This document shows positions 1 to 40,099 of a stretch of DNA of 64,000 nucleotides, piece by piece (within the stretch, counting starts at the first letter, position 1; each line of letters starts with the position of its first letter). Origin of the DNA: Minisyncoccota bacterium (GTDB lineage: Bacteria > Patescibacteriota > Minisyncoccia > Phycocordibacterales > UBA2100); the NCBI GenBank assembly GCA_035708165.1, contig DASSSZ010000005.1:40719-104718 (forward strand). The letters are read 5' to 3'. The notes beneath the pieces are model-generated. The model was not told the origin of the DNA, did not search any database, and was given only the letters and a program-made list of their open reading frames with translations. The position numbers and the translations under genes are program-made.

Positions 1-1004
1 ACCTCGCAGAGACGACCGGCGGCCGCTATTTCAATATCAGCCTCTCCTCGGAGCACCATATCAATCCGTTCGACCTTGCCGTCCCGCGCGAGGACGAGAA
101 TCCGGCGGACGTGCTGCGGAGCAATATCATCTCGCTCGTGGGGCTGTTCCGCATCATGCTGGGCGGGCTCACGCCGGAGGAAGATGCCATCATCGACAAG
201 GCGATCACTGAGACGTACGCGCTCAAGGACATCACGGCGGATTCCAACTTCGCCGCGATCGAGCCGCCCTTGCTCTCCGATTTCGAGCTCGTGCTCTCCG
301 GCATGGAGGGGAGCGAATCGCTGGTGGCGCGGCTTTCGAAGTACACGAAGGGCACATGGTCCGGCTTCATGAACCGGCCGACGAACGTGGATATGAACAA
401 GCGCCTCGTCGTCTTCTCCGTGCGCGATATGGAAGACGACCTGAAGGCGGTCGCCATGTACATCATCACGCACCATATCTGGAACACTGTCCGCAAGGAG
501 CTCCGCAAGCGGCTGCTCGTGATCGATGAGGCCTGGTGGATGATGAAGTCCGAGGACACCGCATCCTTCCTCTTCGGGATCGCGAAGCGCGGCCGCAAGT
601 ACTATCTCGGCCTCTCCACGATCACGCAGGACGTCTCCGACTTCCTCTCATCGCCGTATGGCGTCCCGATGCTCACGAACTCCTCGATCCAGCTCCTCTT
701 GCGCCAGTCGCCGACCTCCGTCGACCTCGTGCAAGAGACTTTCAAGCTCTCCGACGAGGAGAAATATCTTCTCCTCGAGAGCGACGTGGGTGAGGGCATC
801 TTCTTCGCCGGCCTCAAGCACGTGGCTATCAAGATCATCGCGAGCTACACCGAAGACCAGATCATCACCTCCGATCCTTCGCAGATCCTTGCGATCAGGA
901 AGGCGAAGGAGGAGCTCGCGAACCAGGAGCCGGACGGCGCCGCCGCGGTGGAGGCGCCGGCCATGAGCGCGGCGGCGCAGCTCGCGGCGGGCGGCGAGAA
1001 CTAG
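1..1004 (+). CDS. VirB4/TraC/CagE-like type IV secretion ATPase, C-terminal part (5' end outside window)
   Basis: The open frame runs from position 3 with no stop and no ATG before 111. It contains Walker-B-like LLVIDEAWWMM. It also has C-terminal motifs typical of the VirB4 family (RGRKYYLGLSTITQDVSDF, VVFSVRDMEDD). Confidence 0.6.
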   Translation, partial: LAETTGGRYFNISLSSEHHINPFDLAVPREDENPADVLRSNIISLVGLFRIMLGGLTPEEDAIIDKAITETYALKDITADSNFAAIEPPLLSDFELVLSGMEGSESLVARLSKYTKGTWSGFMNRPTNVDMNKRLVVFSVRDMEDDLKAVAMYIITHHIWNTVRKELRKRLLVIDEAWWMMKSEDTASFLFGIAKRGRKYYLGLSTITQDVSDFLSSPYGVPMLTNSSIQLLLRQSPTSVDLVQETFKLSDEEKYLLLESDVGEGIFFAGLKHVAIKIIASYTEDQIITSDPSQILAIRKAKEELANQEPDGAAAVEAPAMSAAAQLAAGGEN

Positions 1005-1059: not shown

Positions 1060-1377
1060 GTGCCGCGTATACTGCTTGGCATGGAACCGATCACCCAGGG
1101 TACCGGCTTCGCCATGATCGCTGCGGCGCTCGTGGTGGACGGCCTCGAGCTCATCCCGGGCGTCGACATGATCGTGGACCCGATCGCGATGTTCCTGTTC
1201 GCGCACTGGTTCGCGCACCACGGCTACTCGCTGACCAGCAGGCGGCCATTCGGCTACTTCGGCACGGCGGTGATCGAATTCATCCCGTTCATCTCCATGA
1301 TTCCCGCGTGGCTCTTCCTCGTCTGGCTCTCTATCCGCGCACAGCGGCGCGAAGCAGCGCGCGAAGGGGCGGTATAA
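1060..1377 (+). CDS. small integral membrane protein (3 predicted TM helices), unknown function
   Basis: 105-aa ORF of hydrophobic stretches. It sits directly downstream of the VirB4-like gene. Confidence 0.45.
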   Translation: MPRILLGMEPITQGTGFAMIAAALVVDGLELIPGVDMIVDPIAMFLFAHWFAHHGYSLTSRRPFGYFGTAVIEFIPFISMIPAWLFLVWLSIRAQRREAAREGAV

Positions 1378-2462: not shown

Positions 2463-3779
2463 ATGCCTCGTCTCCCTCGCATCGATCTCGCTCGCTTCTA
2501 CCGCTACGCCATGCCCGTGACGGTCGCCGCGATCATCCTCATCCTGATCGCGCTCGGGATCTGGTTCCTGTACCTGCATGAGAAGCAGTCCGTCACGGAT
2601 GCCGTCTCCGCCGGGCGCGGCTTAGGGACGGACGTCTCGTCGGCGTTCCCGGGCGGCAGCGCGTATCAGAACGTCGTTTCCGCGGTCTCCAGCGTCTTCG
2701 GCGGCGGCACGAGCGCGACGAGCACGCCGGCCGGAGCGACGAAAGCGGCTCCGCAGCTCTGGGAAGTGGCGACCGCGCCCGCTGCCAGCATCACCTTCGC
2801 AAAGGACGGGACCAGCACCGTTGCTCGCTTCCTCGATGCGGCGAGCGGCAACATCTTCGATGCCGATCCGGCCACGAGCGTCATCGCGCGGCGCACGAAG
2901 ACGCTGATGCCGCGGATCGCGCAGGGTGCATGGTACGGCGAGGAAGGGGCCGTCCTGCGCTATGAGGACAATGCAGGCATCGAGACATTCTCCGGATCCA
3001 TCAATGCGGCGACCACCACCGGCTCGCTCTCCGCGACGGAAGCGCAGGCGCTCGCAGCGAACGGGCCGGGCGATCTCGAGGGCGCGATGCTCCCGCGCGG
3101 CATCCTCGATCTCGTCGCCGCCAGCAGCTCGATCTTCTATATCGCCCCGTATAACGGGGAGTACGCAGGCACGATCGCGAAACCGGACGGAAGCGACGCG
3201 AAGCGGATCTGGACCTCGCCCCTCGCAGAATGGCGCGCGCAGTTGGCGGGGAATCGTATTCTGCTCGTGCAGGCTGCATCCGAAGGAGTGACCGGATCGG
3301 CATACGAGCTCGGCACGGACGGCTCATCGAGCCTCGTGCTCGCCAACCTGCCAGGGCTCGCCGCGCGCGAGAATGCGACGACGCACGCGATCCTCTACAG
3401 CACCGTGGGCGGATCGGGTGCGATCACGCTTTCGGTGCGTGCATCGGATGGGAAGGTGCAGACGCTCCCGTTCGCGACGTTCGCTGATAAGTGCGCATGG
3501 GACCCGGCCGCGCCGTCTGTCGTCTACTGCGCCGTGCCGCACGCGATCCCGCAGGGGAGCGTGCTCCCAGACGCGTGGTATCGTGGCGAAGTCCACTTCG
3601 ACGATGCGATTTGGCGCTTCGATACCGCGACGGGCTCCGTCTCGCAGGCATACGACCCGCATGCCGCGAACCGCTCGCTTGATATACTGGATCCGATGGT
3701 GAGCCCGGATGGCACCTACTTGGCATTCCGCGATGCGGCAAGCGGCACCGGCTGGGTGCTCCGGCTCACGGCGAAGTGA
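2463..3779 (+). CDS. membrane-anchored protein with a possible PD40/TolB-like beta-propeller segment
   Basis: ATG at 2463 follows the stop of the upstream ORF. A single N-terminal TM helix (VTVAAIILILIALGIWFLYL) is present. The C-terminal motif SPDGTYLAFRDAASGTGW resembles a PD40 repeat. The track ORF 2265..3779 is an upstream in-frame extension. Confidence 0.45.
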   Translation: MPRLPRIDLARFYRYAMPVTVAAIILILIALGIWFLYLHEKQSVTDAVSAGRGLGTDVSSAFPGGSAYQNVVSAVSSVFGGGTSATSTPAGATKAAPQLWEVATAPAASITFAKDGTSTVARFLDAASGNIFDADPATSVIARRTKTLMPRIAQGAWYGEEGAVLRYEDNAGIETFSGSINAATTTGSLSATEAQALAANGPGDLEGAMLPRGILDLVAASSSIFYIAPYNGEYAGTIAKPDGSDAKRIWTSPLAEWRAQLAGNRILLVQAASEGVTGSAYELGTDGSSSLVLANLPGLAARENATTHAILYSTVGGSGAITLSVRASDGKVQTLPFATFADKCAWDPAAPSVVYCAVPHAIPQGSVLPDAWYRGEVHFDDAIWRFDTATGSVSQAYDPHAANRSLDILDPMVSPDGTYLAFRDAASGTGWVLRLTAK

Positions 3780-3780
3780 T

Positions 3781-5280
3781 ATGCGCGCACGACTCTTCCC
3801 ACCCCTGCTCATGTTCGCGCTCGCGGCGTGCATCGTAGCCGTCGCGTTGCCGCTTTCCGCCCATGCTGCCGTGCAGGCAGATTGCATCGATACGGCCGCT
3901 GGGTGCGCGACGGCAGGGAGTGCCGCCGGCGCATTCACGCCGCTTACTGATCTCTCGAACACCCCGTTCGCATCCCTGCTGACGGCGAACGAGACCCTCC
4001 CGAAGTTCCTCCGCTGGGCATTCAATTTCGCAATCAGTCTCGGCGCGCTCCTGGCTGTGATCGAGATCGCCTTCGGCGGCTGGCAGTACATGACCGCGGA
4101 AGCGTTCAATAAGAAATCGGATGCGCGCAAGCGCATCCAGAACGCACTCATCGGGCTCCTCATGCTGCTCTCGACCATACTCGTCCTCAATCAGATCAAT
4201 CCGCAGATCACCAGCCTCTCCCTCTTCGAGGACGCGGCACCCGCAGTCGCGCAGACTGGTACGACGGGTGCGACCGATACCGGGACGCTCACCCACGATC
4301 CTACGGGAAGCGGAAAGATCTGCGCGTACCAGGGCACCGACGCCAGCGGCGTCGCGTCATACCGCTGCTTCACGACGCTCGCTGCATGCGAATCCGTCAT
4401 CGGCGCCGCAGGGAATGCGTGCGTGCCATACAACTCCGAGGGTTCGGAAACGACCGCTCCGCTGCCAGGCGAGTACTGCGCGCCGGATGGCAAGACGCAG
4501 GCAGGCGGGAATGTGCTCACGACGCAGTATCGCTGCTTCAGCCAGCAGGCGGCCTGCGAGACAGCCATGCCGGACGCGACCTGTGTCTCCGGAGACTCGC
4601 TCAGCGATAGCTATACGAATGAAGCCTGGGTCACGCAGACCGAATGCAGCACGCGCGGCCCGGGCTGGCAGCCCGTCGCGCCGGCGCTCTGCGGCGCGAG
4701 TACTGCCGGCAGCGGGGTATGCTGCGGCATGGCGAGCACGGTGACGGTCCAAGGCAACGGCAGCCTCACTGGTCACGCGGCGCTTGTCACTGATTTCCCG
4801 GTAGGGTACTGGTGCGCTGACAATCAGGCCGGCGGCTTCGACTGCTTCGCGCAGCAAAGCGCATGCAGCGCGAAGTACTCGCAGGGCTGCGGGCAGTACG
4901 ATGTCGCGTTCCCGGCCGTAGATGCCTCCTCGCAGATTACCGCGCCGCTGTGGTGCGATATCGAGAACGATACGTATACGTGCTCCGCGAGCCAGGACAT
5001 CTGCACGAACACCTTCGGCAGCGCATGCAGCCAGGTTGAGCCGCAGCAGCAACAGCAGCAACAGACCGTGACGCAACAGGCTTACACCGATCCGCATTTC
5101 TATACTGATCTCCAGGTCGCCGAAGCAGGCGCAACCCCGTTGAATGAATGCGAGAGTCTCACTGGCAAGGCTGGCTACGAAGTGGCGCCCGCGAGCGTCT
5201 GCAGCAGCATCAATCTCCTGGGTTCGTCGGGCATCTGCTGCGGATTGGTCTCGTCGAGCGGACAGTCGGACGGGCAATAG
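3781..5280 (+). CDS. VirB2/TrbC-like pilin-type two-helix module fused to a Cys-rich internally repeated extracellular domain
   Basis: Signal peptide (LMFALAACIVAVALPLSAHA) is followed by an amphipathic/hydrophobic pair (WAFNFAISLGALLAVIEIAFGGWQYMTAE ... IQNALIGLLMLLSTILVL) resembling conjugative pilins. Repeated Cys motifs are YRCF...AAC E, VCCGMAS and ICCGLVS. A polyQ run (QQQQQQQ) comes from a CAG/CAA tract at ~5044-5064. Confidence 0.45.
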   Translation: MRARLFPPLLMFALAACIVAVALPLSAHAAVQADCIDTAAGCATAGSAAGAFTPLTDLSNTPFASLLTANETLPKFLRWAFNFAISLGALLAVIEIAFGGWQYMTAEAFNKKSDARKRIQNALIGLLMLLSTILVLNQINPQITSLSLFEDAAPAVAQTGTTGATDTGTLTHDPTGSGKICAYQGTDASGVASYRCFTTLAACESVIGAAGNACVPYNSEGSETTAPLPGEYCAPDGKTQAGGNVLTTQYRCFSQQAACETAMPDATCVSGDSLSDSYTNEAWVTQTECSTRGPGWQPVAPALCGASTAGSGVCCGMASTVTVQGNGSLTGHAALVTDFPVGYWCADNQAGGFDCFAQQSACSAKYSQGCGQYDVAFPAVDASSQITAPLWCDIENDTYTCSASQDICTNTFGSACSQVEPQQQQQQQTVTQQAYTDPHFYTDLQVAEAGATPLNECESLTGKAGYEVAPASVCSSINLLGSSGICCGLVSSSGQSDGQ

Positions 5281-5395: not shown

Positions 5396-8300
5396 ATGAG
5401 TGACACCGCGTTCCGCATGCACGCCATGCGCGATGAATACGCGTGTTTTCTGGCGGCCGTATGTGCCGCCCTCGTCTTTTCCCTTACGCCGCTGCTTGTG
5501 CACGCAGCCGATATCCATGCGATTGATCACCTGTTCACGGGCGGCGGGGCGGTCATCCATGATGGCGATACGGTTACGAGAGATTCATTCTCATCCCTGA
5601 GCCCTGTCTGGCAGGCGTATAGCGATTGGCCCTATGCCGTGCCGGATGGGCAGGGAGCGACGGCAGTCTTCCTCGGGACATTCGGGGATGTGGCTGGCGG
5701 GGCACTCTCTCCTGATGTGAACTACTACTATTACGACAATGGCGGGTACGGATGGCCGGCGGGAGACTCGGTCCAGGCATTCCATGCACCGTTTCCCGAG
5801 CTCGGTGCGCTCAATGCGCCGTCTGCGACCTATACCGTCATGCAAGCCAAGCTGGCGACCAGCTCGGCGCATGACTGGAAGTCTGCGATCGAGTGGTTCG
5901 CATCCGGCGGCGCGACTAGTACGCCGCCGGTCGATTACTCGTTCCTGACGTTCCATTACGTCGCGACAAGCTCGCCGGAATTGATCGCTGATGGCATTTC
6001 GAGCGTGAGGTATGAAGGATTGACGATTCATCCGAGCGATACGGTATACCTGGATGATCTTACGCCGCGTCCGGCGAGCGCCTATGCGACCGGGAATCCA
6101 TGGGACGTAGTGACTGATTGGCCGGGTGCTGTAAGCGGCGGGAATGATGCTGATATCTATCTGTTCCATGGTACGTTCGGGAACCTGGCAGGTGCGCCTG
6201 CGCTCGAGGAAAACTATTATGATCAGGAGATAAATATCCTCCCATCCGGGCAGCCTGATCGTGAAGCAACGCCATCCGGCAATACGTTCTTCGGGTCGTT
6301 CGGTTCCACGACGCCGGACGGGAATTATACGGTGATGGTCGATGAACGAGACCCGAAGGATGGCCCGCTTTCGGGTGCTGGCATTCCCGAATGGTTCGCA
6401 TCCGGCGGTGCGACGGGCACGCCGCCCCTCAAGTACGCCCTGCTGACGTTCACGTATAAGAAGTATCACGAGTGCTGCTCGAATGTGGCATTCCTGCCGG
6501 GCATCGAGGGAAGCGTTCTCAAGGAGGGGGATCAGACCGTCTGGCCGCCGCAGCTCCGTCACTCAGTCGACGATTTGGCCGCGCTCTCATTCAATCCGGA
6601 TGGTACGCCGACACGAGCTGATATCCAGGTCGCAGGAATCGTGAATCAGGCTGATATCGGCTTTTGGAATATACCGGGTATCGATACGGCACCTGATATC
6701 TACCAGGGCTTCACTGATCATATGAATAATCTCGTGACGAGCGGGACGATCAGGGAATGGAAGCCGCTGCCGTATGATTGGCGATTCTCTCCCGAGTACA
6801 TCGTATCGCATGACGTGATGGCAACGAGCGGGCCGGTGAGCCTGACATCTGAGGTCGAGCAACTTGCTGCTGATTCGCCGACTGGCAAAGTGACGCTGGT
6901 CGCGCACTCATACGGTGGTCTTGTCGGCAAGGCGCTCATTAAGGCGCTGATGGATAAGGATGAAGGTGGTCTTATTGATAATTACGTGATGATTGCATCG
7001 CCACAGGAGGGGACACCCCAAACAGTTGGTGAGATGTTGCACGGAGAGAGGGCCAATCTACCCATTCAGATTCCTGGTACTAGTATTAATATCGGAAGCC
7101 TCACAACAAAAACACAAGGACGAGCTCTCGGCATGTACTTGCCTATGGCCTATATTCTCCTTCCCTCCGCTAACTATCTTCAGGACGTGGCATATCAACC
7201 TGTCGAATTCGATGCCTCCGCGCCACAGACCCAGAGCTGGCGTGAGACATGGGGCTCCGCACTAAGTACGCTGCAGGAATTGGATGATTTCCTGACCGGG
7301 AACGGTCCGGATCGGGCAAGGCCTTCTGCGGACGATACGCAGGACCCGGCAGTGCTTGATGCCAGTCAGCTGCAAACTGCGCAGGCATACCATGCTGCGT
7401 TCGATGATTTTTCGTTCGCAAGTACGACGCATGTCATCCAGATTGCCGGGTGGGGGAATCCGACAATCCAAGGAATCCTGTATACGCAAGATCAAGGGAG
7501 GCTCGATTACCGTCCAATGCTGAGTCTGGAAGGGGATGATACGGTCATGGCTCCGAGCGCAGTATCGACCGAGACGAGCTCTACGAGCAGCTACTATTTC
7601 AATCTAAACGAATATCATGCCTTGACTGACCATTCGAGTGGGCATGCATTACTCCCGGCATCCGCACCGGTCCTTGTCGAGCTCGATACGATCATCCAGA
7701 AGCTGCCGATCGTCCTGAATCAGTATTTCACGGCTACGAAACCGGATCTCTCCAGCCTGCCGAAGGAGCTCCTGGCGAGCGTGCACTCTCCGCTCTCGCT
7801 CAGCGCAACCGATGCTTCGGGCAACTATACAGGCCTGACTCCTGGGCAGGATCCGGATACGGATATGCGCCTCATCACGAACGGGATACCAGGAAGCCGA
7901 TACCTCACGTATGGCGACGGCAAGTACCTCATTGTCCCCGAAGGGAACACCTACACCTTCTCGCTCGCCGGCATGGCGACCGGCCCTGCAACTATCGAAT
8001 TGCAGGAGATGGCGAACGGCACGACGACCACACTCGCGACCTATTCGGATGTTCCGGTCTCGACTACGACGAAGGCGACATTCACGATCACGGCGACAAC
8101 GACGACGCCAGATATCTCGCTCGATCAGAATGGGGACGGGGTGCCAGATGCGACTGTCGCACCTGATGGAAGCTCTCAGGCGCCAGACCAGATTGTCTCG
8201 GAACTCGAAGCGGCAATACAATCGCTCGATATCGCCAAGCGGTACGAGAAGGATCTATACAGGCAGGCAAAGAAGCTGGGAAAGCTCGTGACGAGGCTTG

Positions 8301-8596
8301 AGAAGGATGATGCGAAAGCCGCAAAGCAGCAAAGCCAACAGAAGCGACGCGCTAGCACGATTTCGCTCGGCAGTTTCTTCAACATCGCACCCATTCAATT
8401 CGATGTGCCGGATGGAGATTTCCTGGGAACATTATTCGATACGACAATGCACCGCACGGAGGTCAGTGCGATTCGCATCTCCACCGACGTGCTGAAGCAG
8501 GTGATTGAGCAGTATGCGCGCCGAAGCATCCTGACATCGTCTGATGAAAAGAAGCTGGATATATTGCTTGGCGATCTTATGGACGCGATACGATAA
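5396..8596 (+). CDS. large secreted alpha/beta-hydrolase-fold protein (lipase/LCAT/PGAP1-like GHSxG) with N-terminal duplicated domains and a C-terminal coiled-coil
   Basis: Signal peptide is present. The nucleophile-elbow motif is VTLVAHSYGGLVGKAL. An internal duplication pairs FLGTFGDVAGG with FHGTFGNLAGA. A second pair is EWFASGGATSTPPVDYSFLTFHYV and EWFASGGATGTPPLKYALLTFTYK. The C-terminal segment is K/E-rich and helical. The central ~1.7 kb has visibly lower GC than the ends. Confidence 0.6.
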   Translation: MSDTAFRMHAMRDEYACFLAAVCAALVFSLTPLLVHAADIHAIDHLFTGGGAVIHDGDTVTRDSFSSLSPVWQAYSDWPYAVPDGQGATAVFLGTFGDVAGGALSPDVNYYYYDNGGYGWPAGDSVQAFHAPFPELGALNAPSATYTVMQAKLATSSAHDWKSAIEWFASGGATSTPPVDYSFLTFHYVATSSPELIADGISSVRYEGLTIHPSDTVYLDDLTPRPASAYATGNPWDVVTDWPGAVSGGNDADIYLFHGTFGNLAGAPALEENYYDQEINILPSGQPDREATPSGNTFFGSFGSTTPDGNYTVMVDERDPKDGPLSGAGIPEWFASGGATGTPPLKYALLTFTYKKYHECCSNVAFLPGIEGSVLKEGDQTVWPPQLRHSVDDLAALSFNPDGTPTRADIQVAGIVNQADIGFWNIPGIDTAPDIYQGFTDHMNNLVTSGTIREWKPLPYDWRFSPEYIVSHDVMATSGPVSLTSEVEQLAADSPTGKVTLVAHSYGGLVGKALIKALMDKDEGGLIDNYVMIASPQEGTPQTVGEMLHGERANLPIQIPGTSINIGSLTTKTQGRALGMYLPMAYILLPSANYLQDVAYQPVEFDASAPQTQSWRETWGSALSTLQELDDFLTGNGPDRARPSADDTQDPAVLDASQLQTAQAYHAAFDDFSFASTTHVIQIAGWGNPTIQGILYTQDQGRLDYRPMLSLEGDDTVMAPSAVSTETSSTSSYYFNLNEYHALTDHSSGHALLPASAPVLVELDTIIQKLPIVLNQYFTATKPDLSSLPKELLASVHSPLSLSATDASGNYTGLTPGQDPDTDMRLITNGIPGSRYLTYGDGKYLIVPEGNTYTFSLAGMATGPATIELQEMANGTTTTLATYSDVPVSTTTKATFTITATTTTPDISLDQNGDGVPDATVAPDGSSQAPDQIVSELEAAIQSLDIAKRYEKDLYRQAKKLGKLVTRLEKDDAKAAKQQSQQKRRASTISLGSFFNIAPIQFDVPDGDFLGTLFDTTMHRTEVSAIRISTDVLKQVIEQYARRSILTSSDEKKLDILLGDLMDAIR

Positions 8597-8601
8597 CTTA
8601 T

Positions 8602-9078
8602 ATGAGCAAATCAAATCCATTTCTTCTTTTATCGCTCGGAATCTCGATAGCGATGATTGCTCTGGGGTATATTTTTGCTCACGCAAGTGCGTTTGGTTTA
8701 TGTCATGATGACCTAGCAAGAAATATCTTTGATATTTACTGTGACAACTTCTATTGGTACATCGGGAATGCTCTTATTTATGGCATGTCAGCTCTCGCAA
8801 TAGTCTTCTTCGCTCTCCTGCTCGTTCCCAAGGCATTCTCCTGGTGGTGGAAATTCGCAATCTGGTTCGTACCGCTTGATGGATTCATCCTCATTGGGGT
8901 TAGGCCGTCCGATGCGATTTTCAGTCTCGAGCCTTCGCCGGATGAGATGTACCTTCTATTCAGCGGGCTCTACGTCGTCATTTCGCTCATCATCATTATC
9001 GCAGCCTGGCTGTGGCGAAAACCCAGCATGGAGCTGAATAAGAACACACCCGGTCGTGAGAGTCGGATATTGGCTTGA
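8602..9078 (+). CDS. small membrane protein, paralog A1 (AFSWWWKFAIWFVPL motif)
   Basis: Hydrophobic 158-aa ORF in the low-GC island. Its 3' end reads into repeat element R1. Confidence 0.55.
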   Translation: MSKSNPFLLLSLGISIAMIALGYIFAHASAFGLCHDDLARNIFDIYCDNFYWYIGNALIYGMSALAIVFFALLLVPKAFSWWWKFAIWFVPLDGFILIGVRPSDAIFSLEPSPDEMYLLFSGLYVVISLIIIIAAWLWRKPSMELNKNTPGRESRILA

Positions 9079-9108
9079 AGAGCGGGCACTAGTGTTTTTC
9101 CTGCCAGG
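9031..9108. repeat. repeat element R1 (degenerate copy) of a ~70-78 bp intergenic element
   Basis: Shares gagctgaataagaa(a)cacccgg(c)tcgtgagag(t/c)cgg...ttggcttgaagagcgggcactagtgtttttcctgcc with copies at 9727-9797 and 10272-10350. Confidence 0.7.
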
Positions 9109-9185
9109 AGCGGTTCGCGCCTAGATGCGCAGAAGAAGCTGCATAACTTGCTTGAAGATCTTACGAACGCAGTACAATAAGGACC

Positions 9186-9668
9186 ATGAATGCTCCATTT
9201 AATGACCTCCTGTTTTATTTCGTTCTTTTTTGCGCGCAATTTATTCCTTGGATTGTATTCCTGGGGGTTCCTGGGAAAAAAAGAGGAATCTCTCCGTCAC
9301 TTAGATGGATTTGGGCAACCCCGATTGCGGTTCTGACAATATTGGAAGTATTGGCGTATTTGGGATATGAATGGAGCCTCGGGATATTGTGGTTTATTTT
9401 TCCACTCCTTTTTTCCATTCTATCTACTGTAGTCTCATTATCTTATGTCTCACGACCCATTAAAGGACTGCGCCTGGCATTTCCGCTGATACTATTTTTC
9501 CAGGCTCTAGTGGCAATTTTCGCCTTTATCTTTGGTTATCTTGCAGCTGCGTTCTTTACGGGGATTGCATCTGTAATCAGTGGCGGAGCTTTCATGCAAG
9601 GGTTCGGATGGATTGTTCTACTTCCATTTTTATTAACTGGCAATTTTCAGATTAACTTTTGGATGTAA
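9186..9668 (+). CDS. multi-pass membrane protein (4-5 TM), unknown function
   Basis: 160-aa hydrophobic ORF. It is preceded by the repeated promoter-like block gctgcataacttgcttgaagatc...agtacaat. Confidence 0.5.
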   Translation: MNAPFNDLLFYFVLFCAQFIPWIVFLGVPGKKRGISPSLRWIWATPIAVLTILEVLAYLGYEWSLGILWFIFPLLFSILSTVVSLSYVSRPIKGLRLAFPLILFFQALVAIFAFIFGYLAAAFFTGIASVISGGAFMQGFGWIVLLPFLLTGNFQINFWM

Positions 9669-9726
9669 ATAACTCCGGCTCATGGGTGCGGTTTTTGTTT
9701 GAAGATATTTCAGGTCATACAAAACA

Positions 9727-9797
9727 AATAAGAAACACCCGGCTCGTGAGAGCCGGGTGTTGGCTTGAAGAGCGGGCACTAGTGTTTTTCCTGCCAG
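9727..9797. repeat. repeat element R2 with perfect 10-bp stem / GTGA (GNRA) tetraloop hairpin (cacccggctc gtga gagccgggtg) and downstream T5
   Basis: Direct reading. Best-conserved copy of the element. Confidence 0.75.
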
Positions 9798-9882
9798 TAA
9801 CGGTTTCGAACTCATTCGAATTCAGATGCGCTGAAGCTGCATAATTTGCTTGAAGAGCTAAAAAGCACAGTACAATGAGAAC

Positions 9883-10278
9883 ATGTTGAAGAGGGACCCT
9901 AAAGTAATCTTTATATTGCTTGCAGTCATTTCCGCAGCCATTGCGTGCGTCGGGTTACTCGGAATGGACCTCATCGGACCCGCTCTCGTGTACGGGATGG
10001 GTGCCTTGGCGGTCGCATTCATTGCGCTTGCGCTGGTTCCGGGAGCGTTTTCTTGGTGGTGGAAATTCGCAATTTGGTATGTGCCTCTTGCTTGCTATCT
10101 TTTTGTCAGGATTATAGTGAGTGACATAAAACTGAAATCAATACCGATGTGGAATTTTTTTAATCCACCAGCATATATTCAATTTCTCTGGATTGCCGGC
10201 ACGTATTTATTTGTCAGCTGTATCTTAGTGGCCCTTTTCCAGCTATTACACCGGACTGAAGCATCGCACCGGAGCTGA
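9883..10278 (+). CDS. small membrane protein, paralog A2 (AFSWWWKFAIWYVPL motif)
   Basis: 131-aa ORF with clear protein-level similarity to 8602..9078. It is preceded by the same promoter-like block (ttgaag N15 tacaat). Confidence 0.55.
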   Translation: MLKRDPKVIFILLAVISAAIACVGLLGMDLIGPALVYGMGALAVAFIALALVPGAFSWWWKFAIWYVPLACYLFVRIIVSDIKLKSIPMWNFFNPPAYIQFLWIAGTYLFVSCILVALFQLLHRTEASHRS

Positions 10279-10350
10279 ATAAGAAACACCCGGCTCGTGA
10301 GAGTCGGGTGCTAGCTTGAAGAACTGTTCGCTAGGGTTTTTCCTGCCGGG
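10272..10350. repeat. repeat element R3 (hairpin with one G-U wobble)
   Basis: gagctgaataagaaacacccggctcgtgagagtcgggtg...ttttcctgccgggg. It overlaps the 3' ends of the convergent genes 9883..10278(+) and 10331..10768(-). Confidence 0.7.
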
Positions 10351-10768
10351 GAGCGGTTTCGGATGCATTGCGCGAAGAAAGCTTCGCGAGCTGCTCCGGC
10401 AGGCAGCCGATGCAGCCGAAACCCAGCAGGATGGCGATCATTCCAAGTTCGCTGAACTCCCGGCCGGAGAATTGCAGCATGATACCCACTCCGAACAGGT
10501 AATAGCCGAGCCCGACCAGGATCCATATCGTGAAAGCTGCAGTTCTTGCGGGTTCGCTGGCTGGGCTGAGGCGCCCATTGCTCAGCCGGATCCTGCTCGT
10601 GAAGATCATGATCGTGCCCACCAGAACGAAGGCGGAGAGCACGTGCGGGCCGGCTATGGCGACCAGGAGCGGCGAGAGCATCACGAGGACGCAGTTGCCG
10701 AAGAGGGCCGGGAGCTTATGGCGTGCGTACCAGCTGCGAACCGGGACGAACGCGCGGGGTCGGTACAT
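10331..10768 (-). CDS. integral membrane protein (4 TM), unknown function
   Basis: 145-aa ORF with native (high) GC and hydrophobic segments. It is convergent with the island genes. Confidence 0.5.
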   Translation of the reverse strand: MYRPRAFVPVRSWYARHKLPALFGNCVLVMLSPLLVAIAGPHVLSAFVLVGTIMIFTSRIRLSNGRLSPASEPARTAAFTIWILVGLGYYLFGVGIMLQFSGREFSELGMIAILLGFGCIGCLPEQLAKLSSRNASETAPRQEKP

Positions 10769-10883: not shown

Positions 10884-12617
10884 ATGTACATCAGCGACAC
10901 GCACCTCAAGGAATTCCTCCTCGATGCAGGCCTCGTCTCGAAGCAGGCGTTCGAGGATGCGGGCAGGAAGGCGAAGGAGAACGGCAACTCGATCGGCGAG
11001 GAGCTAGTCTCGGCCGGCGTCATCGGCGAGGACGAGCTGCGCCGCACGCAGGCGTACATCCTCGGCATCCCGTTCGTGAACCTCGCGGGCACGAAGATCG
11101 ATTACGACACGCTCTCTCTCATCCCCGAGCCGGTCGCGCGGCGCAACAACATCATCTCGTACAAGCAGGACGGCGACGACCTGCAGGTGGCGATGCTCAA
11201 TACGGACGACCTCGAGGCCATCGATTTCATCAAGAAGAAGACGCACCTCAAGATACAGCCGCGCCTCACGGATGTGGCCTCCATCAAGTACGCGCTCAAG
11301 CTCTACCAGCAATCGCTCAAGGACAATCTCGGCGAGGTCATCCGCAAGGAGACGGAGGCGATGGCGCAGATGCCGGACGGCGAGGAGGATCCGCGCAAGC
11401 TCGCAGAAGGCCTGCCGGCCGTGCGCGTGGTGGATACGCTGCTGCGCCATGCGATCGCGCAGAATGCATCGGATATCCATATCGAGCCGCAGGAGGAGAC
11501 ACTGATCATCCGCTACCGCATCGACGGGCTCCTGCATGATGCGATGATCCTGCCGAAGACGGCGCACGCCGGCATCGTGGCGCGCATCAAGGTCCTCACG
11601 AACCTGCGTCTCGACGAGAAGCGTCTCCCGCAGGATGGCCGCTTCGCGATCGAGGAGGCGGGGGAGCGTGTCTCATTCCGCGTTTCGATCCTGCCCACTT
11701 ACTACGGCGAGAAGATCGTGATCCGCATCCTGCGCGAGCGGCAGAGCGGCTTCACGCTCGAGAAGCTTGGCTTCCATGGCGACGCGCTCGAGCAGATCCA
11801 CGACGCGATGCGCCGCACGACGGGCCTCATCCTCACCACCGGCCCGACAGGCGCCGGAAAGTCCACCACGCTCTACACGCTGCTCGACCTCCTGAATACG
11901 CCGGATGTGAACATCTCCACGGTGGAAGACCCGATCGAGTACCAGATGCAGCGCATCAATCAGACGCAGGTCCAGCCGGATATCGGCTTCACATTCGCTT
12001 CCGGCCTGCGCAGCCTGGTGCGCCAGGACCCGGACATCATCATGGTGGGCGAGATCCGCGACGGCGAGACGGCCGCGCTCGCCATCAATGCCGCGCTCAC
12101 CGGCCACCTCGTGCTCTCCACGCTCCATACCAATAGCGCCGCTGGCGCCATCCCGCGCCTGATCGACATGGGCATCGAGCCGTTCCTCCTCGCCTCGACC
12201 TTGCGGGTGATCATCGGCCAGCGTCTCGTGCGCAAGCTCTGCGATGACAAGGCGGAGCGCCCGCTCACGCGCGATGAGACGAGCCGCCTCGAAGAGGCGT
12301 TCGATCTCGGCGTCGTCCTCAATGCCCTCAAGGAAGAGAAGGTCGTGGGCAAGGAAACGACCTGGAAGAACGTGCCCTTCTTCGGCCCGGCCGAGAACGG
12401 CAAGTGCCCGGACGGCTATTCCGGCCGCGAAGGCATCTACGAGGTGCTGAACGTGACGGAAGACATCAAGACGCAGATCACCGGCGGCGCGACGTCCGAT
12501 GACATCGCGGCGACGGCCAAGCAGCATGGCATGCTCACCATGGGCGAGGACGGCATCTTCAAGGCAGCACAGGGGATCACGACGATCGAGGAAGTGCTTC
12601 GTGTCATCAGCGAGTAG
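10884..12617 (+). CDS. pilB: type IV pilus / type II secretion assembly ATPase PilB/GspE family
   Basis: Walker A GPTGAGKSTTLY, Asp box and His box are present. A C-terminal tetracysteine motif is CDDK...C..C. An N-terminal GspE_N-like domain is present. Length is 577 aa. Confidence 0.95.
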   Translation: MYISDTHLKEFLLDAGLVSKQAFEDAGRKAKENGNSIGEELVSAGVIGEDELRRTQAYILGIPFVNLAGTKIDYDTLSLIPEPVARRNNIISYKQDGDDLQVAMLNTDDLEAIDFIKKKTHLKIQPRLTDVASIKYALKLYQQSLKDNLGEVIRKETEAMAQMPDGEEDPRKLAEGLPAVRVVDTLLRHAIAQNASDIHIEPQEETLIIRYRIDGLLHDAMILPKTAHAGIVARIKVLTNLRLDEKRLPQDGRFAIEEAGERVSFRVSILPTYYGEKIVIRILRERQSGFTLEKLGFHGDALEQIHDAMRRTTGLILTTGPTGAGKSTTLYTLLDLLNTPDVNISTVEDPIEYQMQRINQTQVQPDIGFTFASGLRSLVRQDPDIIMVGEIRDGETAALAINAALTGHLVLSTLHTNSAAGAIPRLIDMGIEPFLLASTLRVIIGQRLVRKLCDDKAERPLTRDETSRLEEAFDLGVVLNALKEEKVVGKETTWKNVPFFGPAENGKCPDGYSGREGIYEVLNVTEDIKTQITGGATSDDIAATAKQHGMLTMGEDGIFKAAQGITTIEEVLRVISE

Positions 12618-12718
12618 CAGTAGGCGCTTGCTGATCCTCTCTCGCCAATCATCCCATCCCATCCGCATCCACACGCCGTGCGTCTCGCTCGCACAGCGTA
12701 CGCGTATACTGGTAAGGA

Positions 12719-13936
12719 ATGACGCAGTACCGCTACACGGCGCAGAAGATGGGCGGGGAGACCTACACCGGCGCAGCGGAAGCGCCGGATCGCTTCGCGC
12801 TCTATGAGATGATCCGCCGCGAGGGCGGGAAGGTCGTCTCGGTGGAAGAGGACAGCACGAGCAAGAAGCTCTCCTTCGCGTACTGGAACGCGAAGATCGC
12901 CACCGTTCCCGAGCGGGAGAAGATCCTCTTCGCGCGCAATCTCGCGGCGATGCTGAAGGCAGGCCTCGCGCTCTCCCGCGCGCTCTCAGTGATCGAGCGG
13001 CAGACCAGGCAGGCGAAGTTCGCGAGCGTGCTCGCGCAGATCGGCAGCGAAGTGCGCCGCGGCACCTCGTTCCATGACGCGCTCGCGCAGTACCCGCACG
13101 TCTTCTCGCGCATCTTCATCGCGATGGTGAAGGCGGGCGAGGAGAGCGGCAACCTGCCCGGCTCGCTCGTCACCATCAGCGATCAGATGAACGAGTCGTA
13201 TACGCTCAAGAAGAAGGTGCGGAGCGCGATGATCTATCCCACCATCATCATCGTGGCGATCATCGGCATCGGTGCTGTGCTCCTCACGACCGTGGTGCCG
13301 ACATTGGCCGAGACCTTCAAGGAGCTCGGCGCTCAGCTGCCTGCGACGACGCAGTTCGTCATCAATCTCTCTGATTTCCTCGTGGAGAACACGCTGCTCG
13401 CGCTCGCCATCGCGATCATCGTCATCGTCGGGTTCATGGCGGGCCTGCGCACGACGATCGGCAAGCGGCTCTCGGCCCAGGTCGCCGTGCACATGCCGCT
13501 CATCGGTCCGGTCGTGAAGGAGGTGAACGCGGCGCGCACCGCCCGCACGCTCGGGAGCCTCCTGCACTCGAGCGTGGACATGCTGGCGGCCCTCGAGATC
13601 ACGACGGAGGTCGTGCAGAACCCGCTCTTCCAGGATGTCTTGCGCGAGGCGCATGAGGCTGTCGCCAAGGGCGATCAGCTGCCCGCTGTCTTCATGCGCC
13701 ATGAGAACCTCTATCCGCCGCTCGTCGGCGAGATGCTCTCGGTCGGCGTCGAGACGGGTCAGCTCTCGGAGATGCTGACGCGGCTCGCGGAGATCTACGA
13801 GGAGAGTGTCTCGACGACGACGAAAGACATGTCGACCATCATCGAGCCGTTCCTCATGCTCATCATCGGCAGCGCCGTCGGCTTCTTCGCGGTGGCCATG
13901 ATCAGCCCGATCTACTCGCTCTCGAGCGCGATCTAG
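12719..13936 (+). CDS. pilC: type IV pilus platform protein PilC/GspF family
   Basis: Two T2SS-F repeats flank three TM helices. It lies immediately downstream of pilB, preceded by RBS aagga and a TATACT -10. Confidence 0.9.
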   Translation: MTQYRYTAQKMGGETYTGAAEAPDRFALYEMIRREGGKVVSVEEDSTSKKLSFAYWNAKIATVPEREKILFARNLAAMLKAGLALSRALSVIERQTRQAKFASVLAQIGSEVRRGTSFHDALAQYPHVFSRIFIAMVKAGEESGNLPGSLVTISDQMNESYTLKKKVRSAMIYPTIIIVAIIGIGAVLLTTVVPTLAETFKELGAQLPATTQFVINLSDFLVENTLLALAIAIIVIVGFMAGLRTTIGKRLSAQVAVHMPLIGPVVKEVNAARTARTLGSLLHSSVDMLAALEITTEVVQNPLFQDVLREAHEAVAKGDQLPAVFMRHENLYPPLVGEMLSVGVETGQLSEMLTRLAEIYEESVSTTTKDMSTIIEPFLMLIIGSAVGFFAVAMISPIYSLSSAI

Positions 13937-13956
13937 CCTGTGCGGCGCAAAGAAAG

Positions 13957-13989
13957 GGCCCCTCGCGAATGCGAGGGGTCGTTTGTTTC
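13957..13989. terminator. rho-independent terminator (ggcccctcgc gaat gcgaggggtc + gtttgtttc)
   Basis: Perfect 8-9 bp GC stem followed by a T-rich tract. It sits between convergent pilC(+) and 13988..14251(-). Confidence 0.7.
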
Positions 13990-14251
13990 AGGCGAGCCGG
14001 AGCTCGTGGTGCCCGGCTGTGGTCGGGCCGATAAGGAGCGGATGCGCGAGGATCTCGCATCCGTCGCGCGAGGCCCGCACGAGTACGCGCGAGGCATCGC
14101 CCGGCATCGGCTCGATCTGCACGAGATCGCCCGGGCGCACGTCCGCGCCCGCCTTCGGCGGCACGCGGAAGCCGCCGCCATCTGCGAAGCACGCGAACGC
14201 GATCCCGCTCGGGCGCGTGTGCACCTCTGCGACCGTGGTCCGATAGCGCAT
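13988..14251 (-). CDS. small protein, possibly cupin-like (tentative)
   Basis: 87-aa ORF convergent with pilC, separated from it by a bidirectional terminator. The motif RPGDLVQIEPMPGD is weakly cupin-like. Confidence 0.3.
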   Translation of the reverse strand: MRYRTTVAEVHTRPSGIAFACFADGGGFRVPPKAGADVRPGDLVQIEPMPGDASRVLVRASRDGCEILAHPLLIGPTTAGHHELRLA

Positions 14252-14344
14252 GAAGCTTCTCCTGTGGTAGTGCTAACCGGCGCGAGCGTACCATAGCGGC
14301 CGCACGCGCCGCAAGCCTTCGCCGGAGTCCGGTACAATAGGCGC

Positions 14345-16063
14345 ATGCAACGCTCTGCCCGTGCGCGCGGCGTCACGCTCATCGACACGCTGATCGGGAT
14401 CGCGCTCATGCTCGTGGTCTTTGCCGGCATCTCGGAAGTGTTCGTCATCTCCATTGATGTCGTGACGAACGCGAAGGCGCGCATCGGAGCCCTCGCTCTC
14501 GCGAACGATCGCATGGAGTACCTGCGCAGCCTCGCGTATCTTTCTGTCGGCACGGAAGGCGGTATCCCTGCAGGGAACGTGCCGCAGGACGAGACGATCG
14601 AGCTCAATGGCGTCACCTACCTGCGCCATGCCTTCATCCGCTACGTGGACCTGCCGCAGGACGGGACCGGCGCTGCCGATGAGAACGGCATCACTGAGGA
14701 TGCGAAGCAGGCCGAGGTGACCGTCTCATGGGATGATCACGGGCGCGCCCGCTCGATGACGCTCACCTCGCTCTTCGCGCCGCCGGGCATGGAATCCACA
14801 GTGCCCGGCGGCACGCTCGAGATCGTCATCACCGATGCCTCCTCGACCCCGCTTCCCGGCGCCTCGGTGCATATCGTGAACGCAAGCACGACTCCCGCGA
14901 TCGACCTCGTTGCGGCGAGCGATGCGGATGGGGAGGTCGAGCTGCCCGGCGCGCCGGCATCGAGCGGGTACGATATCACGGTCGCGAAGGATGGTTACAG
15001 CTCGGCGCAGACCTATGCGGCATCCGCCGCATTGCCGAACCCGAGTCCGGGGGCGCTGACGGTCGCGCAAGGGAAGACCACGAGCGCGACGTTCGTCATC
15101 GACCGTACCGGCACGCTGACGATCCATACATACAAGCAGATAGCCGCGGAGAGCTGGGAGGATTCGTTCGCCGATGATTCCGGCGTCGCCACCTCGAGCG
15201 GTATGGCGATCGGGGATGGCGTCGTCACGCTCGCGTCCGGCACGGCGGCGGGATCGCTCACTGCCAAGGCCGTCGCGCCTGCGCACCTTGCCGGCTGGAC
15301 GAGCGCATCGTGGGAGGATACGCAGCCCGCCGGCACTGCGATCCGCTACCACCTGTACGCCGGCTCGACGCTCGTGCCGGACTCCGTGCTGCCCGGGAAT
15401 GTCTCCGGCTTCGCAGCCTCGCCGATCGACCTCTCCGGCATCGCGACGAGCACGTACCCCTCGCTCGCGCTCGCCGCGGATTTCACCGGCAGCACGACGA
15501 CATCGCCCTCGCTCACGCATTGGCAGATCGCGTACGAGGAAGGGCCGGACCCGCTGCCGGATATCGGCTATACGCTCACCGGCGAAAAGACGATCGGCCT
15601 CGATGCGGATGGCGCGGCCGTGGCCAAGTACAGCCGTTCGGCCGCGACCGATGCCGCCGGGACCGACGAGCTCGATCAGATGGAGTTCGATACGTACGAC
15701 CTCGCGGTTACGGCGACTGGCACGTACGACGTCGCGGAATCCTGCCCGCCGACGCCGTTCGCGCTTACGCCGGGAGCCGCGCTCGATGCTGCGGTCTACC
15801 TTGCGGACCATACGGCGGACTCGCTCCTCGTGGATGTGCGCGGGAGCAGCGGCGTGCTCCTGCCGGGCGTCGCGCTCACGCTCACGCAGGGCGCTTCGCA
15901 ATGGACGGCGACGACGGATAGCTGCGGCCAGGCGTTCTTCCCGGGGATTCCTGCGGGAAGCGCGTACGGGATCGTTGCGGCCGCGAGCGGGTACCAGCAG
16001 TATACGGAGAGCGGCATCACGGTCGGCAGCGGCTCGCGCCTCTCGATCGTACTCAGCCAATGA
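14345..16063 (+). CDS. large type IV pilin-like protein (prepilin-type N-terminus) with two carboxypeptidase-regulatory-like (prealbumin-fold) domains
   Basis: N-terminus RG|VTLIDTLIGIALMLVVFAG is a GFTLIE-variant. Two segments resemble CarbopepD_reg domains: PGASVHIVNASTTP...DADGEVELPG...GYDITVAKDGY and GVALTLTQGASQWTATTDSCGQAFFPGIPAGSAYGIVAAASGY. A TACAAT -10 lies upstream. Confidence 0.65.
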   Translation: MQRSARARGVTLIDTLIGIALMLVVFAGISEVFVISIDVVTNAKARIGALALANDRMEYLRSLAYLSVGTEGGIPAGNVPQDETIELNGVTYLRHAFIRYVDLPQDGTGAADENGITEDAKQAEVTVSWDDHGRARSMTLTSLFAPPGMESTVPGGTLEIVITDASSTPLPGASVHIVNASTTPAIDLVAASDADGEVELPGAPASSGYDITVAKDGYSSAQTYAASAALPNPSPGALTVAQGKTTSATFVIDRTGTLTIHTYKQIAAESWEDSFADDSGVATSSGMAIGDGVVTLASGTAAGSLTAKAVAPAHLAGWTSASWEDTQPAGTAIRYHLYAGSTLVPDSVLPGNVSGFAASPIDLSGIATSTYPSLALAADFTGSTTTSPSLTHWQIAYEEGPDPLPDIGYTLTGEKTIGLDADGAAVAKYSRSAATDAAGTDELDQMEFDTYDLAVTATGTYDVAESCPPTPFALTPGAALDAAVYLADHTADSLLVDVRGSSGVLLPGVALTLTQGASQWTATTDSCGQAFFPGIPAGSAYGIVAAASGYQQYTESGITVGSGSRLSIVLSQ

Positions 16064-16680
16064 CCACGCATGCTATGACGAGAAACGCAGGATGGAGAAG
16101 ACGGGGCATGACGTTCATCGAAGCGATCGTCTGGGTCGCGATCTTCACGATGGCGATGGTCGCCATCACGGAGACGCTCATCAGCTTCTACCGCGCCAAC
16201 GCCTATACGCTCGAACAGGGCGCGGCAGTCGAGAGCGCCCGTGCCGGTATCACCGCCACCGTCAAGGAGATCCGCGAAGCGCAGTACGGTAGCGACGGCG
16301 CATACCCGATCGTTTCGATCGCGCCGGATTCCTTCTCCTTCTACAGCGACGTGAATGACGATCCGTACGTCGAGGAGGTGACCTATACGCTCGACGGCAC
16401 GAACTTCGTGCGCGGCGTCCTCTCTCCTTCGGGCGATCCGCTCGCGTACGCGGGCACAGCTGCGACCAGCACGGTCTCCGATAACGTGCGCAATGCCGCG
16501 CAGGGCGTGAACGTCTTCACCTACTACGATAAGAATGGCAACGTGATCACCGATTACAGCAAGACGACGGATGTGCGCTACGTAGTGATCGACCTCGTGG
16601 TGAACGTGAACCCGTCGCGTGCGCCGCACGACCTCACGCTCGAGAGCAGCGCAGCGCTGCGCAACCTGGTCGCGCGATGA
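16060..16680 (+). CDS. type IV pilin / pseudopilin (minor-pilin-like)
   Basis: N-terminus RRG|MTFIEAIVWVAIFTMAMVA is a canonical prepilin peptidase site with Glu at +5. It overlaps the upstream gene by 4 nt (ATGA). Confidence 0.75.
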   Translation: MTTHAMTRNAGWRRRGMTFIEAIVWVAIFTMAMVAITETLISFYRANAYTLEQGAAVESARAGITATVKEIREAQYGSDGAYPIVSIAPDSFSFYSDVNDDPYVEEVTYTLDGTNFVRGVLSPSGDPLAYAGTAATSTVSDNVRNAAQGVNVFTYYDKNGNVITDYSKTTDVRYVVIDLVVNVNPSRAPHDLTLESSAALRNLVAR

Positions 16681-37179: not shown

Positions 37180-38124
37180 ATGACGGCCCGTCGCACCAAG
37201 AAGAAATCGAACGAGCAATACGCGGTGCTGCTCAAGCAGCTGGGCGGTCTCATCGCGGTGACGATCCTGATCGCCGCTGCAACCGCGTTCATCTCCGCGA
37301 CGCCGCGCCACGCCTCCGCGACCGGCGACCCAGCCCTTTCCGGCTATCTATGGAGCGATACGATCGGCTGGATCAGCCTCAGCTGTACCAATACCGGCAC
37401 CTGCGGCACGCACAATTACGGCATGTCGATGGCCAGTTCCGGCGCACTTTCCGGCTATGGCTGGAGCGATAGCATCGGCTGGGTATCCGCCAATCCTTCC
37501 GATACCTCTGTCTGCGGCAGCCAGGCGACAGTGAGCACGAGCGGATCGGTCACCGGCTGGTTACGCGCGATTTCCGGCGGCACCTCGCAATCCGGCGGCT
37601 GGAACGGCTGCATCTCCCTCTCCGGGAGCGGCTATGGCGTGACATTCAATACGGCGAACGGCGCATTCGGCGGCTATGGCTGGGGTGACACGAATGTCGG
37701 CTGGGTGGATTTCTCCAAGGCGAGCGCTGTAGCATCGTGTACGCCGCAGAATATCTGCATCGGCAATAGCACGTACAATCAGAACGCCTATTGCCAGCAG
37801 ACGCTCATAAAGACGTGTGCTGGCACGTGCAGCAATGGCATCTGCTCGGAAGACCTGCCGCCGCCCACAGGAACGCTCATCGTCGCGCCGACCTTGGTGC
37901 GCGAAGGCATGAGCACGCAGGTCTCCTGGGATTCTGATGAGGCGTACGCCTGCCAGGTGACCGGCAGCAACGGCGATTCCTGGAGCGGTACGAGCGGGAC
38001 GAAGACGAGCAGTCCGATTACCGATACGGTCACGTATACGCTCTCATGCAAGAACGATGGCGGCAGCATGTCGGTCATCAAGAAGGTGAGTGTCTACCTC
38101 GTCCCGGTTTACCACGAGATCTGA
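37180..38124 (+). CDS. membrane-anchored surface protein with three LSGY-W-D-IGW repeats and a Cys-rich C-terminal domain
   Basis: The three repeats are LSGYLWSDTIGWISLS, LSGYGWSDSIGWVSAN and FGGYGWGDTNVGWVDFS. An N-terminal TM anchor and 14 Cys are present. Confidence 0.5.
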   Translation: MTARRTKKKSNEQYAVLLKQLGGLIAVTILIAAATAFISATPRHASATGDPALSGYLWSDTIGWISLSCTNTGTCGTHNYGMSMASSGALSGYGWSDSIGWVSANPSDTSVCGSQATVSTSGSVTGWLRAISGGTSQSGGWNGCISLSGSGYGVTFNTANGAFGGYGWGDTNVGWVDFSKASAVASCTPQNICIGNSTYNQNAYCQQTLIKTCAGTCSNGICSEDLPPPTGTLIVAPTLVREGMSTQVSWDSDEAYACQVTGSNGDSWSGTSGTKTSSPITDTVTYTLSCKNDGGSMSVIKKVSVYLVPVYHEI

Positions 38125-40089: not shown

Positions 40090-40099
40090 TTTAGGGGGC

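Follow-up and report, generated by a model that had tools for sequence, protein, structure and literature searches.

The window studied here, a stretch of 64,000 nucleotides (nt) from contig DASSSZ010000005.1 of a Patescibacterial genome, carries near its start a gene (3781..5280, plus strand) for a VirB2-like pilin with a long cysteine-rich tail. Its product of 499 amino acids (aa) is identical to NCBI HET8581364.1, labelled there as "pilin" of Candidatus Paceibacterota bacterium. Sequence comparison places its two-helix hairpin in the large VirB2-like family PF18895 of Patescibacteria, and the tail, made of six modules with four cysteines (Cys) each, is an undescribed architecture on a recently described kind of protein. 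We think it probable, though far from certain, that the protein is a membrane- or pilus-embedded subunit of a type IV secretion system (T4SS) that displays a fast-evolving, disulfide-bonded adhesin, a function that we infer.

The open reading frame (ORF) is a real gene. Its ATG at 3781 is the start in two independent gene-calling pipelines and lies one base past the TGA (3777-3779) of the upstream gene, here called Y; the GC content of its third codon positions (GC3) is 0.77, in a genome of 65% GC. A longer ORF starting at 3709 was dismissed, as it would overlap gene Y and lack a signal peptide. Among some 15 billion proteins the 499-aa product forms a singleton cluster. Only one other assembly of the locus was found, L001 (Logan SRR25158513), which shows no difference over 7259 nt and possibly comes from the same underlying data. 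Genes and protein features are given below; AF2 is the AlphaFold model, pLDDT its confidence score (predicted local distance difference test), HMM stands for hidden Markov model, and L003 and L163 are two of the three related genomes (with L002) used for comparison.

111..1004, plus strand: C-terminal part of a VirB4-like T4SS ATPase, cut by the start of the window (PF19044, 3.7e-15; NCBIfam conju_CD1110, 9.5e-45)
1060..1377, plus strand: 105-aa membrane protein (gene call), absent at this position in L003 and L163
1385..2458, plus strand: gene X, conserved in the operon, coding for a secreted Ig/PKD-like protein (weak PKD/Ig Pfam matches)
2511..3779, plus strand: gene Y, also conserved in the operon, coding for a protein of 422 aa anchored at its N-terminus (gene call)
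3781..5280, plus strand: VirB2-like pilin with Cys-rich tail (HET8581364.1)
3781..3867, plus strand: Sec-type signal peptide, aa 1-29 (MRAR, hydrophobic core, SAHA/AV; rule-based reading of the sequence)
3868..3996, plus strand: mature N-terminal segment containing a cysteine pair (Cys35, Cys42) and the F-x-P-L-T motif of the family (consensus FVPL)
3997..4107, plus strand: hairpin helix 1, aa 73-109, hydrophobic core 76-99 (hydropathy, AF2, family HMM)
4111..4134, plus strand: basic loop KKSDARKR, aa 111-118; cytoplasmic side predicted from the positive-inside rule
4135..4212, plus strand: hairpin helix 2, hydrophobic core aa 121-139, ending at N140-P141 (QINPQI)
4213..4308, plus strand: A/T/G/P-rich flexible linker, aa 145-176 (sequence; AF2 pLDDT <50 at aa 147-164)
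4309..4434, plus strand: module A1, aa 177-218 (Cys 181, 196, 203, 214)
4465..4596, plus strand: module A2, aa 229-272 (Cys 233, 252, 259, 268), an insertion relative to homologues
4612..4746, plus strand: module B1, aa 278-322 (Cys 289, 304, 314, 315; GPGW and VCCG motifs)
4801..4902, plus strand: module A3, aa 341-374 (Cys 345, 355, 362, 370)
4942..5040, plus strand: module A4, aa 388-420 (Cys 392, 401, 408, 416), an insertion relative to homologues
5044..5064, plus strand: Q7 tract, aa 422-428, codons (CAGCAGCAA)2CAG, in the linker ahead of B2
5080..5262, plus strand: module B2, aa 434-494 (Cys 457, 474, 486, 487; ICCG motif)

An earlier description of this DNA, made from the letters alone and called here the sequence-only reading, had proposed a signal peptide followed by two hydrophobic helices around a KKSDARKR loop, and all of these are where it had placed them by sequence, hydropathy and AF2, which models helices at aa 73-109 and 112-139 with pLDDT 74-84. 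Its further claim that this is a hairpin of the conjugative type was upheld by the relatives of the protein and by the VirB4 operon in which its gene lies. An exhaustive phmmer search returned 10,814 representative relatives at E<=1e-3, nearly all aligned over aa ~45-170, with E values of 1e-15 to 1e-42 to relatives that match PF18895 (T4SS_pilin). That model was matched by all 60 relatives tested (best 4.6e-12), the TrbC/VirB2 model PF04956 by nine of them (best 1.8e-5), NF045849, which describes the pilin-like Mbov_0395 of integrative and conjugative elements (ICEs) of Mollicutes, weakly by 37 (best 3.4e-8), and NF045890, for pLS20_p028, by seven; for the homologues P0003 to P0006, PF18895 is already present as a precomputed annotation. 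The window ORF is matched at 1.7e-39 by an HMM made from the relatives. The 499-aa protein itself scores lower against the public models: 17.5 bits (E 0.0043) for PF18895, with aa 71-131 on model positions 3-63 of 71 and below the gathering threshold of 26.6, and 14.5 bits for NF045849, below the cutoff of 40.

The search with the TrbC/VirB2 model suggested by the sequence-only reading gave a divided answer, with nine of 60 relatives matching and no direct match of the protein at E<=0.1. Since a tblastn search of the hairpin against 72,556 plasmids was also without match, and Foldseek returned generic helical hairpins only, the link to classical VirB2 is transitive rather than direct. Taken with the sub-threshold Pfam score, these failures are what one would expect if the pilin likeness were accidental and the gene coded for some secreted, Cys-rich protein outside the family whose two transmembrane helices are ordinary ones. 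We consider this extremely improbable and effectively refuted by the family HMM, by the 60 out of 60 relatives with PF18895 and by the synteny with VirB4 that is conserved in the four genomes compared and in 66 out of 80 loci from the candidate phyla radiation (CPR). Neither of the two outcomes that would have told against the sequence-only reading was seen, be it helices that are ordinary transmembrane segments of another family or a Cys domain devoid of repeats.

What the hairpin does is a more delicate question. In the main rival to our reading it is a two-helix membrane anchor only, which never polymerises, and the protein is a surface or envelope protein tethered beside the T4SS, for example as a docking ring around the channel mouth, with no pilus involved. 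The 37 relatives that match Mbov_0395 and the seven that match pLS20_p028 connect it to small two-helix membrane proteins of monoderm conjugation systems that make no known pilus, although nine of the 60 match TrbC/VirB2. Relatives with 3-5 tandem hairpins or with SLT domains resemble polytopic anchors rather than polymer subunits, and a Patescibacterial T4SS pilus has never been observed (PMC12857230). However, pilin genes are essential components of the T4SS cluster in Southlakia (PMC10633639), and that G100, G125 and N140-P141 are strictly conserved throughout the hairpin family suggests constraints of helix-helix packing beyond anchoring. K112, in the loop, is nearly invariant too. We hold the anchor to be a possible but unlikely explanation, and keep a T4SS subunit as the preferred one.

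The pilin gene is the last of an operon VirB4-X-Y-pilin, on the same strand as VirB4 and 2.8 kb 3' of it. In L003 and L163 the order is PrgI/VirB3, a TraC-like gene, VirB4, X, Y and a pilin whose tail has the same two module types, A and B; the L002 contig starts inside VirB4, and VirB4, X, Y and a tailed pilin are visible there. In all three, jag-yidC lies 3' of the cluster; L003 has rnpA there as well, while L002 and L163 have dnaA-dnaN. Gene X is 37-47% identical to its syntenic counterparts in these genomes and has homologues in 53 of the 80 CPR loci; for gene Y the values are 41-50% and 59 of 80. No family or PDB match was found for gene Y, and PDB sequence searches with X and Y returned noise only. 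The 105-aa membrane protein has weak homologues in three of the 80 loci. VirB4 lies within 10 kb of the pilin module in 66 of them. The window locus matches the published layout of Patescibacterial T4SSs, which are MPF-FATA-like, have VirB2-like pilins, lie near dnaA and usually lack a relaxase (PMC12102498).

With the family HMM, HET8581364.1 is the sole pilin-module ORF of the 64-kb window, and the tailed protein is likewise the only one in the complete clusters of L003 and L163. Because no other gene of the operon has a pilin module in any of the four genomes, we think a role as main subunit more likely for the tailed protein than one as a minor subunit at the tip, and the adhesin-like tip of the sequence-only reading remains a conjecture.

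We compared amino-acid identity among the window, L002, L003 and L163, genomes of 43-65% GC. It falls from 88-97% for the VirB4 C-terminus to 45-57% for the pilin hairpin, 37-50% for X and Y and about 28-33% for the pilin tail. The tail diverges fast while its Cys framework stays, as expected for a determinant of host specificity. As for VirB4, third codon positions of its C-terminal ATPase part are near saturation between these genomes. Among loci that bear the labels Kaiserbacteria, Paceibacterota and Saccharibacteria (L004-L083) the identity of this part is 84-91%, a sign of extreme purifying selection relative to the rest of the operon.

The tail (aa 148-499, 352 aa, ~36 kDa) is acidic, with an isoelectric point (pI) of ~4, and contains 24 Cys, 33 D/E and 7 K/R. 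Of the 27 Cys of the whole protein, one is in the signal peptide and 26 are in the mature protein of 470 aa: two in the N-terminal segment, 16 in A modules and eight in B modules. The order of the tail is A1-A2-B1-A3-A4-Q7-B2, where A follows the pattern [WY]-C, a variable stretch, [YF]-x-C, six residues, C, a second variable stretch and C, and B the pattern C...G-x-G-W...C...C-C-G. Smith-Waterman scores against 1000 composition-preserving shuffles gave z values of 8.6 for A1-A2, 6.0 for A2-A3, 6.5 for A3-A4 and 5.7 for B1-B2, compared with -0.2 for A-versus-B controls; for the two tail halves z was 4.2, a score reached by one of the 1000 shuffles. The duplicated motifs seen in the sequence-only reading, YRCFTTLAACE/YRCFSQQAACE and VCCGMAS/ICCGLVS, are present, and the internal repeat that it claimed stands against the shuffles, not as a simple duplication but as four A and two B modules.

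There is no repeat between the tail halves at the DNA level, and the duplication must therefore be old. In the alignment with homologues A2 and A4 are insertions, both absent from the homologues, and the nearest module pairs are A1 with A2 and A3 with A4. From this we derive a likely history, based on sequence comparison, in which an A-B-A-B ancestor, as in P0007 and P0011, had each A duplicated in tandem. A single duplication of an AAB block does not fit these pairings, nor the absence of the two inserted modules from the homologues.

The tail alignment has nine invariant columns, seven of them Cys. AlphaFold, also suggested by the sequence-only reading for the C-terminal domain, returned repeated beta-hairpin/helix units at pLDDT 70-90, each A module being a beta-hairpin, a short helix and a strand; by module, pLDDT was 80-90 for A1, about 70-83 for B1, A3 and B2, and low for A2 and A4, which are lineage-specific. 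Searches for relatives of the tail outside its own type were negative. Scanned against Pfam at E<=10, the tail and its individual modules matched nothing but RE_Bsp6I, a restriction-enzyme family, and that match is spurious; a sequence search of the PDB with the family profile gave no matches; and Foldseek found no fold match to the tail (best E 1.2 against PDB and 1.2 against BFVD). A word-index search with the tail alignment led to P0001 and P0003 only.

The CAG/CAA-encoded run of seven glutamines pointed out in the sequence-only reading is present at aa 422-428 (codons CAGCAGCAACAGCAGCAACAG, nt 5044-5064), in a Q/T/S-rich linker just ahead of the conserved N-terminal strand of B2. Homologues have Q-rich linkers of other kinds, such as QQQDQ in P0009, and we saw no sign of a functional role for the tract.

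Could the tail be something other than an adhesin? A released effector, toxin or binding factor (e.g. a cleaved array of disulfide-knot peptides) or an enzyme would be compatible with attachment through a flexible linker, with the SLT-type enzymes that sit on the same anchor in other family members, and with small 4-Cys beta/alpha modules that are like secreted disulfide-rich peptides in general style, a resemblance only. Yet the tail lacks catalytic motifs, family matches and a recognisable cleavage site; its composition, acidic, rich in A/T/G/S/Q and poor in K/R, is not that of a typical membrane-active toxin; and the number and order of modules vary among homologues, as in repeat adhesins. 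We consider a released or enzymatic tail quite improbable.

How common are such tails? We counted them in 86 pilin-module ORFs from 80 species-representative CPR loci and in 78 metagenome ORFs complete at their 3' end, two samples that are biased, both having been picked by the helix-2 motif and ranked by similarity to HET8581364.1. Tails of at least 60 aa were found in 61/86 genome-derived and 63/78 metagenome ORFs, of at least 150 aa in 42/86 and 46/78, and of at least 300 aa in 10/86 and 12/78. At least four Cys were present in 53/86 and 56/78 tails, and at least 16 in 9/86 (maximum 40) and 8/78. Long Cys-bearing tails are common, with some half of the ORFs sampled reaching 150 aa or more, and a tailed VirB2-like protein is therefore ordinary within the Patescibacterial family and unusual only in comparison with classical VirB2/TrbC; the surprise expressed in the sequence-only reading at a pilin with a tail holds for the second comparison and not for the first.

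The A/B type of tail, by contrast with tails as such, is rare. It occurs in none of 72 genome-derived and two of 78 metagenome tails, with no matches among reversed-sequence decoys, and in approximately nine representative clusters, of which the five looked up are all singletons. HET8581364.1 has the most modules of any protein of this type. The scan of genome contigs found neither the window's own genome nor any A/B-type relative, and the metagenome scan yielded one relative, L084, which is P0010. In 13 other CPR loci with the order VirB4-X-Y-pilin the tail has a median of 19 aa and a maximum of 143 and is mostly Cys-free, and we therefore regard the tail of the window protein as a lineage-specific elaboration of the operon's pilin.

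The hairpin module is a display platform, since its relatives bear other tails, SLT domains or tandem hairpins. Several of them (P0015, P0021, P0012, P0016, P0017 and P0031) chain two to five pilin hairpins in one polypeptide, and two multi-hairpin relatives end in an SLT lytic-transglycosylase domain, a VirB2-VirB1-like fusion. P0004 and P0005 join the hairpin to a different C-terminal domain ending in ...HWHVCY, whose H-x-x-H...D pattern is suggestive of a metallopeptidase and which has no Pfam match. Pilin tails with unrelated Cys-rich repeat types are found in L029, L072, L047, L069, L082 and L083, L029, for example, having knottin/EGF-like repeats of the pattern D-C-x-S-G-x-C (40 Cys) and L082 a recurring NKTYCP unit. 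These unrelated types suggest many independent inventions of tails on the same hairpin.

Under our preferred reading, the gene would code for a VirB2-like subunit of a chromosomal, monoderm-type (MPF-FATA-like) T4SS of a Paceibacterota bacterium of the CPR/Patescibacteria. The Sec signal peptide would be cleaved, and the helices would insert as a hairpin with the KKSDARKR loop in the cytoplasm and both ends facing outward, a topology suggested by the positive-inside rule and by that of VirB2. The flexible linker of ~30 aa and the acidic tail of ~36 kDa with its six 4-Cys modules would then lie outside the cell. An external and structured tail is what we infer from the even Cys count, the invariant Cys columns and the AF2 modules at pLDDT 70-90. 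The 24 tail cysteines and the N-terminal pair would form disulfides, as the even number of mature Cys (26) suggests; the enrichment of CPR genomes in MdbA-like oxidoreductases and VKOR (bioRxiv 10.1101/335083) makes this plausible. Finally, the operon's VirB4 ATPase may recruit the hairpin into an extracellular pilus or a short stalk, which the tails would coat to act as a host-contact (adhesin) surface. The C-terminus of F-pilin tolerates peptide fusions, which are displayed on the pilus surface, and by this analogy an outward display of the C-terminal tail is plausible.

Several points weigh against this proposal. The protein's own PF18895 score is below threshold, as said above, and the tail is without detectable similarity to any adhesin, Pfam family, PDB entry or viral fold, so that the term adhesin comes from context alone. 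The contig has 178.7 kb, of which the window covers 64 kb, and a short major pilin may lie elsewhere. The T4SS machine needs no tail, since CPR loci with the same gene order have short pilins. It may also be questioned whether a domain of 36 kDa on each subunit would fit VirB2-type helical packing. And a T4SS pilus has been seen in no Patescibacterium, while classical monoderm T4SSs are without pilus (PMC12857230).

The closest known proteins are the PF18895 pilins of Patescibacteria, such as those of the array of Ca. Southlakia epibionticum ML1. They share with HET8581364.1 the signal peptide, the two-helix hairpin and basic loop, the conserved residues G100, G125 and N140-P141, and a gene position beside VirB4, PrgI/VirB3 and a TraC-like gene, near dnaA, and they are found in CPR-labelled genomes only. 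Published descriptions, however, treat them as small and do not mention tails (PMC10633639; PMC12102498), whereas HET8581364.1 has its own 352-aa tail of six 4-Cys modules, absent from Pfam, and is encoded by a single gene rather than an array. With the classical TrbC/VirB2 proteins (PF04956; Agrobacterium VirB2, RP4 TrbC) it has in common a leader peptide, a hydrophobic hairpin with a short basic loop and dependence on a VirB4 operon. Those are roughly 70-120 aa when mature, far from the 470 aa seen here. They differ further in that the organism of the window is a monoderm, that the protein has no direct PF04956 match and no single-sequence similarity to plasmid-borne genes, and that neither cyclisation nor a pilus is in evidence. 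Mbov_0395/MMCAP2_0565 (NF045849, Mollicutes ICEs) and pLS20_p028 (NF045890) are also two-helix modules of monoderm MPF-FATA-type conjugation, but they have ~80 aa and no tail. PrgB of pCF10 and the tip adhesins of the VirB5/CagL type would be functional analogues only, sharing the role proposed for the tail in contact between T4SS and target cell. They have no sequence or fold similarity to the tail, and they are separate proteins, whereas here the adhesive domain would be fused to a VirB2-like subunit.

Other parts of the window deserve a brief description. An island of lower GC (5396-10360; GC 48-56%, GC3 0.39-0.63 against 0.8-0.9 elsewhere) adjoins the pilin gene on its 3' side, in the place taken by jag-yidC in related genomes. 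It codes for a secreted LCAT-like alpha/beta-hydrolase of 1066 aa (PF02450, 2.3e-9) with an internal duplication (5890/6388), and then for three small polytopic membrane proteins (8602-9078, 9186-9668 and 9883-10278), each gene having a 50-nt repeat ahead of it and, behind it, a 79-nt repeat with the hairpin CACCCGGCTCGTGAGAGCCGGGTG. This cassette array is reminiscent of a lipase effector with immunity genes. Type IV pilus genes occupy 10884-18116, with PilB (T2SSE, 1.5e-120), PilC (T2SSF, 1.9e-53) and large proteins that resemble pseudopilins and have a hydrophobic helix at the N-terminus (PilX_N; CarboxypepD_reg domains). Within 37180-44902, the paralogues at 38248-40089 and 43097-44902 have the trimerisation domain of the phage long-tail-fibre protein Gp34, one of them also an S74 intramolecular-chaperone domain; interleaved with them are secreted Cys-rich ORFs without family match (37180-38124 with 12 Cys, 42280-43029 with 18 Cys).

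Patescibacteria grow on their hosts by means of the T4SS, which together with its pilins is essential for epibiotic growth of Ca. Southlakia according to transposon sequencing (Tn-seq; PMC10633639), and their host-contact component is a gap, with no identified adhesin: "No adhesins such as PrgB" were detected in their T4SSs (PMC12102498). The operon's sole VirB2-like gene, with its predicted extracellular, Cys-framed tail of 36 kDa, is a candidate for this contact. One could go further and propose, as a speculation that we think doubtful at present, that the VirB2-like hairpin is a general display scaffold that polymerises into a monoderm T4SS pilus or stalk, each subunit bearing its own disulfide-bonded host-binding domain. 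If this were true, the pilin itself would be the "missing adhesin" of the essential epibiont T4SS, its rapidly diversifying tail (here A-A-B-A-A-B) would set the host range, and the structure would be a naturally decorated conjugative-type pilus. To our knowledge, no such pilus is known in any classical T4SS. Our counts suggest that long Cys-bearing tails are the rule for these pilins, on which published surveys are silent, and tails that common would change how the "pilin arrays" and the host specificity of CPR bacteria are read.

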